Assembly: GCA_963669175.1 (NCBI GenBank)
Contig: OY769902.1
Span: 3,872,001-3,936,000 of the forward strand
DNA length: 64,000 nt
Direction: 5' to 3'
From: a bacterium
Lineage (GTDB): Bacteria > Electryoneota > Electryoneia > Electryoneales > Electryoneaceae
Position 1 is the stretch's first letter, and the number at the start of each line of letters is the position of its first letter. Below, piece by piece: positions 55,695 to 60,193 of this stretch. The position numbers and the translations under genes were made by a program. Under the pieces are notes generated by a model. It made no database searches and was not told the origin of the DNA. It saw nothing but the letters and a program-made list of their open reading frames with translations.

Positions 55695-56842
55695 TTATGA
55701 GCCCGGTTACCGAGATCAAACAGGCCGCATTGGAAAGCGGCTTTCATTTTGCCGCTATCGCACCTGTTGATCCATCACCACTGGCCCATCACCTGGATAT
55801 CTGGCTGCAACAGGGACACGCTCAGCAGATGCGCTGGATACCGGATCGCAGAATGCTGTTACGTGATCCCCGCCGCGTCTGGCCGGACGCAAAATCCATG
55901 CTTGTCGTCGGCCTCCGGTATAGTTTATCCAGCCACTATGATGCTTTCCTGACCGATCCGTCCCGTGGCGCGATCAGCCGTTACGCCTGGGGACGTGATT
56001 ATCATAAAATCATGGGAAAACGTCTGCTGGCTTTGGGCAAGAACCTCTCCTCCATCCTGCGACAGCCGGTAAACTTCCGAAAATTTGTTGACGCAGGTCC
56101 ACTGCTGGAACGTCCCCTCGCAGCTCGTGCAATTCCCGGTTTCATTGGCAAGAACACCCTGCTCATCCACAAGGCGATTGGCTCAAGCTTTTTCCTCGGT
56201 GAATTGTTGCTGGATATCAGTCTCCCGCCTGATCCTCTACAAGAGTTGGAAGGATGCGGGAAATGCAACGCCTGTATGAAAAACTGTCCCAGCGGAGCAT
56301 TGGGTATTCCCTGGAAACAGGCAACACGCAATTGTCTGTCCTATCATACGATCGAAGGTGGTCCAATTATCTCCCACAGAATTCGTCCACTGCAGGGAAA
56401 CCGGATTTTCGGTTGTGATGAATGCCAGACAATTTGCCCTTTCAATCGGGAGAATGATCAGGATGCCTCCCCGCCTGATCCGGCTTTTGTACCGGACAAT
56501 ATCAACCGTGTCGCGCCATCATTGGCTGATGTGATGCGCTGGTCACGCGACGAATATGACGCACTGTTTGCCGGGAGCGCAGTACGGAGAGTTTCACACG
56601 AGTATTTCCAGAGAAATGCCGTGGTGGCGTTGGGAAACTGGGGCAGCGATGAAGCGTTGGAGATCCTTGCGCCCCTTCGGGATAGTCCTTCGGAGATCCT
56701 TCGTGCTCACGCAGCCTGGGCAATCGGCCAGTGTCATTCTGCGGAAAATGCAACAAACATTCTTGCGAAATGGCAGCAAAACGAAGCCAATCCTTTAGTT
56801 CGCCTCGAGCTACAACTCGCGACGAATACCTCAGGTAATTAA
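55691..56842 (+). CDS. queG: Epoxyqueuosine reductase
   Basis: ISRYAWGRDYH, GFIGKN, CGKCNAC...CP, GCDECQTICPFN and a HEAT-like C-terminus. Confidence 0.93.
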   Translation: MIMSPVTEIKQAALESGFHFAAIAPVDPSPLAHHLDIWLQQGHAQQMRWIPDRRMLLRDPRRVWPDAKSMLVVGLRYSLSSHYDAFLTDPSRGAISRYAWGRDYHKIMGKRLLALGKNLSSILRQPVNFRKFVDAGPLLERPLAARAIPGFIGKNTLLIHKAIGSSFFLGELLLDISLPPDPLQELEGCGKCNACMKNCPSGALGIPWKQATRNCLSYHTIEGGPIISHRIRPLQGNRIFGCDECQTICPFNRENDQDASPPDPAFVPDNINRVAPSLADVMRWSRDEYDALFAGSAVRRVSHEYFQRNAVVALGNWGSDEALEILAPLRDSPSEILRAHAAWAIGQCHSAENATNILAKWQQNEANPLVRLELQLATNTSGN

Positions 56843-58215
56843 AATTCTGTCCCCTCAGGAATGAGTAGAATATTCAAGACTATTGAATCATCAGCAGGGA
56901 TATATTCTACCCGCTCAATTGTGCTATAACCGGTTTTTTCGAAGGTAAGATGCCTGCATCCTGCCTCTACGGTCAGGCAGAATTCCCCATCTGCGTCTGA
57001 AAGGGTTGACGCGCCAGTCTCATCTGAAATATCAACATCACGAAGGGCTTCCATGGTATTGCCGTCACATACTGTCCCGAATACCTGGCCATTTCCTGCT
57101 ACTTCTTGATAAACAGGGATGTCAAGTGTCAGATCTTCGCGCTCTTCCAGAAAAATGGGGATGGTATAAAACAATTCATATCCATATACAGAAACGAGTA
57201 TACGGTATTCCCCACTCGGGATAAAATTGACCAGGTAATTGCCATCTGCGTCCGAAACTGCAGTGCCGGTGTTTGGATATGTGGTAATCCTTGCCCCACC
57301 TATCTTTGCGTTTGTTATCCCGTCATATATACAACCGGATAACGAGCCGTATGGATTTTCCAGGCACAATGTGACAATGGTTGTGTCCCCCGGTACGACG
57401 GAAACTGTCGTATCAACAATTGCAGAGCTATTTATAGACGCACACAGAGAATAGGATCCTCCGACCAGATTATAGAATGCAAAATGGCCATCTTGATCTG
57501 TCATGTCAGGATCACTACCCGGTTCTATTGAGACACGAATACCTTCCAGCCCTTCGTTACTGTACGGATCAATCACAGTGCCAATAATATCACCGTAAAC
57601 ATTTATGTATTCCAAGGCTATATTCACTTCCGTACCTGTAGCGCTATCAACCTGGCAGAAAATTGTTACTGATTCAAAGCCGGCCATGGATGCCAGAATG
57701 GTATAACTCCCGGCTGGCAAGTCAACAAACTCGTAGTATCCCGAGTTATCTGTATACGTATCATCGTAATTCGGGTATTTGCTGATTACAACATTTGCAA
57801 TCGGTTCTGAGTTCTGAAAATCAATCACATGACCAAAGATGTACCCGTTCTCCGGGTTCGGGTCCGGGTCCGATCCAATGGCAGGAAGCAGGGCGAAGTC
57901 CAGGCTTTCTACATCACCAGCATGGGGTCTGACAATCTGGTTCAGCGAGTGGAAACCATCACGGCTGGCATTAATCGTGTATTCGCCGGGGGCAAGGTCA
58001 ACAAAAGAATATGCCCCGTATTCATCGCTATAGGTGGCGATACCGTCAGGAGCAAGATAAAGGCATGTGTTTTCAAGAAAATCACCTGATTCGGAATCAG
58101 TCACAACGCCATTAATACAGCAATATTTCTGTTCCTCATCGTCATCCTGGCAACAGGCAAACAATGATGCAAAGCACAGGATTGGCAGGAGAAACCATCG
58201 AAACCCAGTATTCAT
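56839..58215 (-). CDS. Lipoprotein with five carboxypeptidase-regulatory-like repeats
   Basis: Lipobox LFAC followed by CQDDDEE; repeated G-x-(I/V)-x-G-x-V-x-D...DG-Y...G-x-Y. Confidence 0.8.
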   Translation of the reverse strand: MNTGFRWFLLPILCFASLFACCQDDDEEQKYCCINGVVTDSESGDFLENTCLYLAPDGIATYSDEYGAYSFVDLAPGEYTINASRDGFHSLNQIVRPHAGDVESLDFALLPAIGSDPDPNPENGYIFGHVIDFQNSEPIANVVISKYPNYDDTYTDNSGYYEFVDLPAGSYTILASMAGFESVTIFCQVDSATGTEVNIALEYINVYGDIIGTVIDPYSNEGLEGIRVSIEPGSDPDMTDQDGHFAFYNLVGGSYSLCASINSSAIVDTTVSVVPGDTTIVTLCLENPYGSLSGCIYDGITNAKIGGARITTYPNTGTAVSDADGNYLVNFIPSGEYRILVSVYGYELFYTIPIFLEEREDLTLDIPVYQEVAGNGQVFGTVCDGNTMEALRDVDISDETGASTLSDADGEFCLTVEAGCRHLTFEKTGYSTIERVEYIPADDSIVLNILLIPEGTEF

Positions 58216-58347
58216 GAAAGCCCCCATGAATTCATGTCGGTAGCCCTGTTCGATAGTATGTATCATGATCAAGGGTTTTCTAATATAGGCACCTATTGAA
58301 AAAGTCTCCAGCCTTATCCAGGTAATTCTTCAATATTTTCGTTTGGA

Positions 58348-58617
58348 CTAGTGGACCGGATCACGTGAATCGAGGAGTTCTGCTTGTCACGGACGAGTTG
58401 GGTGCAAGGCGATTTCATGCAGGTGTAGCGGGTTACTGTAAATGAAATCAACGCAGCAGACAGCCGCCTCGTGACAAGCCCGAAGGGAGCACGCCTCATC
58501 GTTCATGACTGCGTTCCATTCCTTTGAAACAACCCGCTATGCCTTCAGGAATGGGCCTTGTCCTGAACGATGATACGCAGCTCAGTATCCATCGATTCAT
58601 GTGATCCGGTCCACTAG
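58348..58617. mobile_element. 270-bp Correia/RUP-like MITE or structured ncRNA with 26-bp terminal inverted repeats
   Basis: CTAGTGGACCGGATCACGTGAATCGA (58348-58373) vs TCGATTCATGTGATCCGGTCCACTAG (58592-58617), 25/26 complementary; interior almost fully paired. Confidence 0.7.
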
Positions 58618-58828
58618 GTTACCGCGTTCCTCGGTTGAGTCTAGCGGATCAGAATATCGAACATGACTGGATTTACGGCTGTCCCAAACAGACGGGACAC
58701 CGCAAGCTTCGGTTCCCATCCCCGATCACTGCTTTCGGGGACAGGCTCTTCGTGGGAATAAATACCACGTACTCGTGAAATATCCGGGTTAGCAGTACCG
58801 ATGTATCAAAAACGACATACTGAAGAGC

Positions 58829-58860
58829 AAAAAGCGGCTGCCGAACGGCAGCCGCTAAAA
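58829..58860 (-). terminator. Intrinsic terminator of the upstream lipoprotein gene
   Basis: GCGGCTGCCG-TT-CGGCAGCCGC followed by TTTTT on the minus strand, about 20 bp after the stop. Confidence 0.85.
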
Positions 58861-58879
58861 GACTCAACAACATGTTGTC

Positions 58880-60193
58880 CTATTTGGCGGAAAGAGCGCT
58901 CATCCCAGCATCAGCAGGCTCGTTTTCCTGAATCTCGTTGATCAGATTAATTGTGTTGGAAGCGCCATCCAGCTCACAAACGACCCAGTACGCACCAACG
59001 CCAGTCTGCGGGACAATAACAGTATTCACCAGACCGTTTTCATCATAAATCTCGACCTGGGCGTTACAGCCGGCAAGATCAGGTGTTCCGGAGTAGTTAT
59101 GTACGAAATAGGTGTACGTCCCTGTAAACACATCATACATGGTAATGGTTTCAGGTCCGTAGCTGCCCATATCATCGATGTCGAGATAAGCGTACGGGGC
59201 TTCATCAGCATAGCCATGGAAGCTATATGAAATATGATAGGTGCTGCCTTCGATCTCCGGTGTCAACAAGTGACTGTCCAGATCGTAGGGCGTCGATTCC
59301 CATGTGAGGACGAAACGAACTTCGCCTTCGCCGGCCAGTTCGGGCGTAATCGCGATGTTGACTTCGAAGATACCGTTTGACGGGATATACCCGTAACGTG
59401 TCGAATTGAAGTAACCGTCAATCGAGGCAGTAATCGCACGATAACCGGCATCGACATTCATGCTGTAGTCGCCATTTGCGTCTGTAGTGGTGGACATGCC
59501 ATCGTCTGCAACAACCGTCACACCTTCAATGGCGCTGCCCGTCAAGGCATCGGTAACCCTGCCATGAACTTCGCCTGTTCCTTCCTGTTCAGGATAGAGC
59601 CCGAGGTTGACAACTTCCGTCTCACCATCGGTCAGCGTGAATTCACCGGAGGTACGCGGATCATAACCGGACGCGTTAATGGTCACAGTGTAGTTGCCAC
59701 CGGCAATATTCGACAAGGTATACTCACCATCATTGTTGCTGGTGGTATTGGATGTCGCCGGGTTGGTCGAAATGGTTGCGCCACTGATAACTGCGCCGGT
59801 CAATGCATCGGTGACAACACCGGAGATGTTGCCCAGCCCGATCAAATCAAGGGCAAAATTCAACGTAGAGACTTCGTCAGCCACGACAGCAGCCGATGCG
59901 CTGGCCTCGAGATAGTCGTCATGGGTTGCTGTGACAACATAGTTTCCTGCATCAAGGTCGTTGAATTGATAAGCGCCGTACGCATCAGTAATACGTGGCA
60001 GCCCACCCGTATTCAAATTCAGTTCAACGCCTTCAATCGCTGCGCCGGTTGCTGCATCTGTAACTGTGCCATGAATGGCGCCATACAGTACATCATCATC
60101 GTCGTCATCGTCCTCGTCATCACCACAACCAATCGCCAGGACAAGGCCCAAAGACAACAAAGCAATCACAAACCACGGTAACACTTTCTTCAT
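58880..60193 (-). CDS. Lipoprotein with three carboxypeptidase-regulatory-like repeats and a C-terminal YfaP/DUF2135-like domain
   Basis: Lipobox AIGC followed by GDDEDDDDDDD; RFVLTW...DLDSH...LDIDD...GPETI...Y.YFVHNY. Confidence 0.82.
   Translation of the reverse strand: MKKVLPWFVIALLSLGLVLAIGCGDDEDDDDDDDVLYGAIHGTVTDAATGAAIEGVELNLNTGGLPRITDAYGAYQFNDLDAGNYVVTATHDDYLEASASAAVVADEVSTLNFALDLIGLGNISGVVTDALTGAVISGATISTNPATSNTTSNNDGEYTLSNIAGGNYTVTINASGYDPRTSGEFTLTDGETEVVNLGLYPEQEGTGEVHGRVTDALTGSAIEGVTVVADDGMSTTTDANGDYSMNVDAGYRAITASIDGYFNSTRYGYIPSNGIFEVNIAITPELAGEGEVRFVLTWESTPYDLDSHLLTPEIEGSTYHISYSFHGYADEAPYAYLDIDDMGSYGPETITMYDVFTGTYTYFVHNYSGTPDLAGCNAQVEIYDENGLVNTVIVPQTGVGAYWVVCELDGASNTINLINEIQENEPADAGMSALSAK

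Follow-up and report, generated by a model that had tools for sequence, protein, structure and literature searches.

A mirror-symmetric 270-nt repeat with a conserved multi-arm fold in the Electryoneaceae: a probable non-autonomous DNA transposon

The window analysed here is a 64,000-nt stretch of an Electryoneaceae genome (assembly GCA_963669175.1, contig OY769902.1, positions 3,872,001 to 3,936,000 of the forward strand), and the element that is the subject of this account occupies its positions 58348-58617. It lies between two ORFs read on the - strand, 75 nt upstream of the start of one (56839-58272) and 262 nt downstream of the stop of the other (58880-60193). Both ORFs combine a signal-like start with a cysteine and an acidic run (...FACCQDDDEE and ...AIGCGDDEDDDDDDD), features that would fit the label of lipoprotein given to them in a first-pass annotation made from the letters of the window. 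Two signals on the - strand flank the element: a terminator-like hairpin at 58833-58856 and a weak promoter-like match at 58282-58310, the latter at chance level (shuffles of the region also yield one). The hairpin is strong (10 pairs, 8 of them G-C, then a T run) and begins 24 nt past the stop of the ORF at 58880-60193. A second, unrelated interspersed repeat directly adjoins the element at 58651-58790; it has approximately 10-14 copies in the window's own genome (G000, 5.45 Mb) and many in a genome of the same genus (G001), with up to 94% identity over ~50 nt, and repeats of its type also lie close to other copies, or ends, of the main family (5386382 and 331072 of G000 are examples).

The element is bounded on each side by CTAG, at 58348-58351 (the TA at 58349-58350 being the core of the duplication) and at 58614-58617. 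Immediately inside lie the terminal inverted repeats, TGGACCGGATCACGTGAATCGAGGA of subfamily A on the left (58352-58376) and its counterpart on the right (58589-58613). Positions 58348-58373 and 58592-58617 form a 26-nt inverted repeat that is perfect apart from position 18, where a G/A difference gives a G-U pair on the + strand. The 26-bp closing stem with a single G-U mismatch that the first-pass annotation had described is accordingly borne out as pairing; its outermost CTAG is flanking target sequence and not stem. The element proper comes to ~262-266 bp, with ends TGGNCC...GGNCCA. The sole ORF of at least 40 amino acids that touches the 270-nt stretch is 61 amino acids long and runs out of it.

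The interior consists of two hairpin modules separated by a small hairpin. Arm 1, the inverted-repeat hairpin module at 58380-58479, has outer (58382-58391/58470-58479) and inner (58411-58418/58442-58449) stems, a CAAGGC block in its internal loop (58405-58410), an apical-loop motif GGTGTAGCGGGTT at 58422-58434, and an AACGCAG block at 58450-58456. The central mini hairpin CCCGAAGGG (58480-58488) is part of a conserved block, AAGCCCGAAGGGAGC. Arm 2, the second hairpin module, at 58496-58573, has outer (58496-58505/58564-58573) and inner (58517-58524/58548-58555) stems and an apical-loop motif AACCCGCTATGCC at 58531-58543 that, with its flank TTGAAAYAACCCGCTATG, is the most conserved stretch of the family. 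The reverse complements of the two arm 1 blocks recur in arm 2, GCCTTG at 58555-58560 and CTGCGTT at 58509-58515, the AACGCAG/CTGCGTT columns being near-invariant. On reading positions 58100-58900, every string that had been quoted for these stems was found at its quoted coordinates, and the outer and inner stems of both arms and the CCCGAAGGG hairpin are all perfect in the window copy. The two apical motifs, one of them the partner of the other in a proposed loop-loop ("kissing") helix, can pair along all 13 positions, twice as G-U, in agreement with the earlier claim.

The predicted minimum-energy fold of the window copy is a closed three-way junction. On the + strand its computed energy is -129.1 kcal/mol, against a mean of -82.9 for 200 shuffles (z -9.07, none as good); on the - strand it is -130.6 kcal/mol (z -9.76). 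By these folding calculations the structure of the 270-nt stretch is real and not a chance product, and is equally good on either strand.

This stretch is one member of a repeat family. A profile search of the window's own genome finds 34 matches that do not overlap, and 18 of these are full-length; at least 34 are present in G001, and G004, G010 and G009, from other genera of the family, contribute a few each. Matches thus occur in five of 16 genomes of the host's family, and a search of 25 genomes from the phylum's other families gave none; these figures come mostly from incomplete assemblies, in which a failure to find does not equal absence. A strict pattern of the core matched only the assembly of G001 in a genome collection, a pattern of the ends matched four stretches of a metagenome collection, none of which fits the family profile, and plasmid and phage collections yielded no match. 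No Rfam covariance model matches anywhere in the whole window at its gathering score, and the best weak match near the element, with an E of 1.3, scores 16.9 bits where 66 are needed. Searches of the literature, made by words rather than by sequence, found no published description of the repeat family.

Thirty-eight copies were aligned (18 from G000, 17 from G001, two from G010 and one from G004), leaving out the partial copies L044, L050, L108 and L111 (L044 and L111 being cut by a contig end) and the two-piece copy L038. They fall into subfamilies with average identities of 93-98% within and 66-79% between them. In G000, subfamily A has the ends TGGACCGGATCACATGAATCGA and subfamily B the ends TGGACCATTGCACCTGATATGA; in G001, subfamily C is a young burst that combines an A-like core with B-like ends, and subfamily D ends in TGCTCC...GGAGCA. 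Intact copies measure 269-272 nt in every subfamily and genus. Four of the 18 G000 copies are chimeras, three with an A left half and a B right half (L009, L010, L012) and one with the reverse arrangement (L011); the halves being of different origin, the ends or arm 2 of these copies are unable to pair. Each joint lies in a conserved block, which is the central AAGCCCGAAGGGAGCGCGC in some and the loop of arm 2 in others, making the central mini hairpin a point of recombination between subfamilies. The loop of this hairpin varies (GAA, AAA, TTCG, TACG), with its CCC/GGG stem retained. One repeat copy in G000 (contig C1, 711952-712532) is split by an insert of ~315 bp at element position 191-193. 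Solo ends of the family also occur, with long ORFs beside them.

Each of the 18 full-length G000 copies occupies a gap between long ORFs, and both orientations occur; the longest possible ORF start falls inside the element in a single case. Eight of these copies are in tandem gene contexts (five on the same strand as the genes, three on the opposite one), seven are between divergent genes and three between convergent genes. Such an arrangement, and a fold without strand bias, do not suit the distinct structured ncRNA gene that the first-pass annotation had envisaged: the object is multi-copy, and is found in either orientation and in any gene arrangement.

That the family has moved is shown by empty sites, a check that the first-pass annotation had proposed. 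Two insertions of G001 (L049 and L031) are missing at the matching sites of G000, where there are exactly four bases in place of four bases, element and four bases; a third empty site is paralogous, matching the G000 copy at 5322715 within the same genome. (At the L049 site, positions 607956-607959 of contig C1 in G000 read CGAG, the reverse complement of the right flank CTCG in G001; in diverged sequence, this relation may be due to chance.) For the window copy itself no orthologous empty site was found in G001, G004 or G010, in which the flanking genes match weakly. The 34 copies, the flanking duplications and the empty sites together uphold the suggestion of mobility with inverted-repeat ends and a TA/CTAG target.

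The nature of the duplication is less simple. With the flanks written as N1-T-A-X|TGG... on the left and ...CCA|Y-T-A-N2 on the right, 14 of the 38 aligned copies have CTAG on both sides and are uninformative about the length of the duplication. Five copies, all of the G001 young burst, have perfect non-palindromic direct repeats (TTAG, CTAT, GTAG, and CTAC twice); here X = N2 and Y = N1, which makes the duplication a true one of 4 bp. Three others (L008 and L023 of G000, L033 of G004) have [A/T]TAG on the left and CTAG on the right, with X = G and Y = C fixed and the outer base varying, as expected for a 2-bp TA duplication around an element with ends G...C. The remaining 16 have other changes in their flanks. 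At the paralogous site, the empty sequence is ...CAC CTAT TTCG and the filled one is ...TAC CTAG[element]CTAT TTCG, which requires no mutation on the TA model and one on the 4-bp model. Duplication of TA with fixed ends consequently accommodates L008, L023, L033, the paralogous empty site and also the flanks of the mini-palindromes described below; the five G001 copies contradict it. Either two enzymes are responsible for the two patterns, or the mechanism is one that is not understood. The preferred target is a rare one: G000 has 1571 CTAG sites where ~21,278 are expected (a ratio of 0.07), and 112 of them read CTAGTGG or CCACTAG, the form that CTAG has at the family's ends. CTAA/TTAG is likewise reduced in this genome, to 21% of expectation.

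Conservation of the fold was assessed on the 38-copy alignment with the structure of the window copy and the proposed loop-loop pairs, 104 pairs in all. Standard pairs occupy 89.7% of the cells, compared with 32-41% when partners are slid by one to three columns, and 62 of the 104 pairs have changed on both sides, a number that none of 500 shuffles reaches. The closing stem (helix 1) has two-sided changes in 21 of its 29 pairs. Helices 3 and 4 of arm 1 are paired in 97% and 94% of cells, with two-sided changes in 11 of 20 and eight of nine pairs, respectively; the corresponding values for helices 9 and 10 of arm 2 are 86% and 88%, with 10 of 13 and seven of 10. RNAalifold, given no structure, regained the closing stem, arm 1 and the central hairpin; it did not regain arm 2. 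The base-paired architecture proposed at the outset is, then, retained across related copies through compensatory changes, with the qualification that the copies are related, that the structure was taken from one of them, and that much of the covariation signal comes from a few subfamily splits instead of many independent events. G-U outnumbers A-C by 132 to 83 cells in the stems and by 80 to 58 in the loop helix, so that neither strand is clearly the folded one. As the aligned sequences read, pairing is maintained at the level of the founders of subfamilies; single copies degenerate, and stems are broken in chimeras. Such upkeep could come from selection on the element as a folded single strand while it spreads. 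It could also come from templated correction in quasi-palindromes, a mutational process that generates "compensatory" changes without selection.

The loop-loop helix behaves differently from the stems. Ten of its pairs are paired in 84.7% of cells and the other three in 68.4%, and two-sided changes amount to five cells in total over the 13 pairs. One central pair (columns 83/230) fails to form in 16 of the 38 copies, owing to an A that faces a C in the G001 burst. Variation is mostly one-sided and restricted to the loop of arm 1, that of arm 2 being near-invariant. Duplex energies were computed for the 28 distinct pairs of apical loops, with 300 shuffles of each. For 10 loop pairs, one of them from a distant G010 copy, at most one shuffle in 300 is as good; for five, two to four shuffles are equally good; for three, seven to nine; and for the remaining 10, between 32 and 247. 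The strongest duplexes, at -16 to -25 kcal/mol, belong to subfamily A. Since the duplex beats all or all but one of its shuffles in 10 of 28 cases, selection on loop-loop pairing is conceivable.

A plainer source of the complementarity is found in the design of the element. A 52-nt stretch of arm 1 (element positions 58-109) and the reverse complement of 162-213 in arm 2 match at 71% (E 7e-4): distal arm 2 is an inverted copy of distal arm 1. The stems of the two arms differ, each with its own compensations, and it is the conserved unpaired blocks that correspond: CAAGGC with GCCTTG, apical motif with apical motif, AACGCAG with CTGCGTT. The loops owe their complementarity to this inversion, and any two inverted copies of a module with conserved loops will seem to "kiss". 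The 13-bp helix would then most simply be a side effect of mirror symmetry. What had been anticipated of homologues, that they preserve the complementarity of the loops, is seen to a degree in most lineages, as descent predicts, and is lost in several; upkeep by covariation is what those five two-sided cells fail to provide. With almost no two-sided changes, and with a helix that weakens or vanishes in several subfamilies, the kissing contact finds no support as the defining feature of the element.

Transposase genes of several types occur in G000, none of those examined having the ends of the family. An IS630-type transposase with the same ends had been suggested as something to look for; an IS630-type element does exist, in five near-identical, active-looking copies of 1165 bp that are all flanked by CTAG (contig C1, 3627807, 4008928, 4461038, 4494026 and 4999436), and three of these are inserted exactly in the CTAG bordering an end of this repeat family (of the TGGACC type). 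Its own ends have merely CTAGTG in common with those of the repeat. Four DDE_Tnp_1 elements and an IS3-type element of G000 were rejected as partners, their ends being unrelated, as were a 568-amino acid DDE_Tnp_1 element of G009 and a decayed DDE fragment beside a G001 copy, the ends of which are not common to the repeat. No element of G000 with PF01609, PF13358 or PF00665 has matching ends, and PF13359 gave no match. Among inverted TGGNCC pairs within 5 kb in G000, the only ones enclosing genes are RAYT-linked repeats of other families, and no partner transposase was found in five relatives.

The repeat family to which the 270-nt stretch belongs is probably one of non-autonomous DNA transposons (MITEs). 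The identification is made because the ends are inverted, the duplications are centered on TA, the copies are intergenic and in both orientations, and empty sites exist. Small size, inverted ends, flanking duplication, dispersed copies, and filled as well as empty sites, which are five marks of a MITE, are all found here; the sixth, a related autonomous element with the same ends, did not appear in the searches made. The element inserts at TA-centered sites, mostly the rare CTAG, which is left standing on both sides. Its fold is closed and multi-armed, with the two ends paired together and each half bearing a hairpin module of its own; the modules being mutually inverted, every conserved unpaired block of arm 1 finds its complement in arm 2. 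Movement would occur in trans, by a DDE transposase cutting TA-centered targets: presumably an enzyme of the IS630 type, if the TA pattern of G000 is the guide, or a 4-bp cutter, such as one of the IS5 type, if the pattern of G001 is. Pairing of the stems would serve the spread of the element, or would persist by templated repair of a quasi-palindrome, and would not reflect a dedicated RNA function. Several points count against so plain an account. No transposase gene with matching ends appeared in the searches made, and the loop duplex outdoes its shuffles in 10 of 28 loop pairs. Cut-and-paste transposition needs no internal hairpins, so that the label of MITE does not alone explain their compensatory upkeep and the constant length of ~270 nt. 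The duplication lengths of G000 and G004 and those of the five G001 copies are, moreover, inconsistent.

It is at least conceivable, if improbable, that the element owes its fold, its fixed length and the partial complementarity of its loops to spreading or acting as a single strand of DNA or RNA in folded form, with its arms docked and its ends brought together. In that event it would be a structure-dependent mobile element of a kind undescribed so far, and its minimal form would be seen in the free-standing 26-bp palindromes of G000. Some 20 of these, which consist of the outer 13 nt of both ends (TGGAYCGATTCACATGRATCGRTCCA or the B type), are dispersed in this genome (for example at 1178731, 1200493, 3168098, 3990554, 4778159 and 5272682 of contig C1); the number comes from reading matches, a loose pattern search being near background (254 matches versus 167 in shuffles). 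Most are bordered by CTAG-like tetranucleotides, and their left/right flanks (TTAG/CTAG, GTAG/CTAG, CTAG/CTAT, CTAG/CTAA, CTAG/CTAC) follow the pattern of TA duplication. These palindromes could have arisen from the element as minimal derivatives, or could be the unit from which it was built.

That such palindromes are built of the two end sequences and nothing else also agrees with an unlikely reading of the family as REPIN-like, that is, as moved by a REP-associated tyrosine (Y1/HUH) transposase whose substrate is single-stranded DNA in its folded state. On this view REP-like hairpins would make up the ends, and the enzyme or the replication fork would see the internal hairpins as well, much as conserved hairpins are what the single-strand transposases of IS200/IS605 recognize. 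G000 certainly offers candidate enzymes: 10 Y1_Tnp (RAYT-like) genes (contig C1, 2672127, 5013848, 1503099, 5361261, 3618452, 1916782, 4919424, 5087486, 4082176 and 2242586), each flanked by its own, mostly palindromic, repeats in up to 130 copies, and several of these repeat families start with TGGCCC. (One RAYT-linked repeat is a tandem array of 81-bp period at 2242938-2243262.) Nevertheless, not one of the 10 loci has a copy or an end of the present family within ~1 kb; the flanks of the RAYT gene at 5087369-5087869, considered as a subfamily B-like end, proved on reading to be a different repeat. Y1 transposases, moreover, are not known to make target duplications, and the flanks of this element behave as just that: in the young burst the right-hand tetranucleotides covary with the left-hand ones, which rules out a fixed cleavage site borne by the element.

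The notion that the element is a mobile structured ncRNA, in which a + strand transcript forms a three-way junction locked by the loop-loop helix, is quite unlikely. It has in its favor the very stable fold and the compensated stems, the performance of the loop duplex against shuffles in those 10 of 28 loop pairs, and a central hairpin loop that in two lineages is TTCG or TACG, both of which are stable RNA tetraloops. It must contend with a - strand that folds equally well, with G-U and A-C counts that designate no clear coding strand, with copies in both orientations and all gene contexts, with four of 18 copies that are chimeric and have a broken stem, with the lack of an Rfam match, and with the placement of the window copy between a terminator-like hairpin and, for the next gene, a promoter-like match of chance level. 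Domestication by the host, each copy being selected as a stabilizer of mRNA ends, an RNase III site, an insulator or a protein-binding site, is very unlikely. The exclusively intergenic position of the copies would suit such a role, and there is precedent in the Correia and ERIC MITEs, described as affecting transcripts via RNase III or RNase E (PMC10969869). Selection copy by copy is, on the other hand, hard to reconcile with a set of no more than 18 full-length copies, among which many are decayed, deleted or chimeric, with the inconsistency of orientation and of distance to genes, and with insertion sites that, where compared, are not common to the sister genome.

Taken as a MITE, the element is of an ordinary kind and is unusual in several respects: its three-way fold covaries, its length is fixed, its subfamilies swap halves, 26-bp palindromes exist that may derive from it, and its flanking duplications look like 2 bp in G000 and 4 bp in G001. 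The striking lead of a kissing-loop RNA is removed, and its place is taken by a mirror-symmetric mobile repeat, belonging to a family in which compensatory change has preserved the internal hairpins and the length from genus to genus. The host has many palindromic repeats, 10 RAYT-like genes, and a genome that has lost 93% of its expected CTAG sites. The lineage is a good natural system in which to ask why certain MITEs conserve secondary structure.

Several known systems resemble the family in part. Correia elements duplicate TA. Like Correia/NEMIS of Neisseria, the present element is an intergenic MITE with inverted ends of ~26 bp that would form a long stem when transcribed; it is set apart, as far as the descriptions go, by its host lineage and by its two covarying internal arms, the Correia element being described as one long hairpin that RNase III cuts at the paired ends, with an IHF site (PMC10969869). 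IS630/Tc1-mariner elements duplicate TA, and IS630 is described as preferring the TA within CTAG (PMC2170065); the G000 and G004 copies fit TA duplication with fixed G...C ends, the five G001 copies with their 4-nt duplications do not, and the ends of the 1165-bp element differ beyond CTAGTG. The 4-bp TA-centered duplication of those five copies is shared with IS5, for which the duplicated sequence is given as 5'-YTAR-3' (PMC5009759). Those of G001 (CTAC, CTAT, GTAG, TTAG) are described as NTAG, and by the published definition TTAG alone is YTAR; among the elements examined, no DDE_Tnp_1 gene with matching ends was found. REPINs, described as two inverted REPs moved by RAYTs (PMC3337134), resemble the family in the two inverted palindromic end units around a spacer, the hairpin and the RAYT-rich genome. 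In contrast with REPINs as so described, the present family is without a linked RAYT, has target duplications and has a much longer, structured spacer; tests of a REPIN-RAYT relation failed on the first two counts (0/10 for repeats flanking RAYT genes).

The closest functional analogue documented in the sources consulted is bcr1 of the Bacillus cereus group, a transcribed, dispersed repeat of ~155 bp with 5-bp direct repeats, whose genomic positions differ between strains and whose cruciform-like fold consists of two independent stem-loops held by compensatory changes (all as described in PMC3184786). Compared by description, this element differs from bcr1 in its size of 270 bp, its long inverted-repeat ends, its TA/CTAG target and its mutually inverted arms; the likeness lies in the combination of a dispersed repeat, direct repeats and compensated stem-loops.
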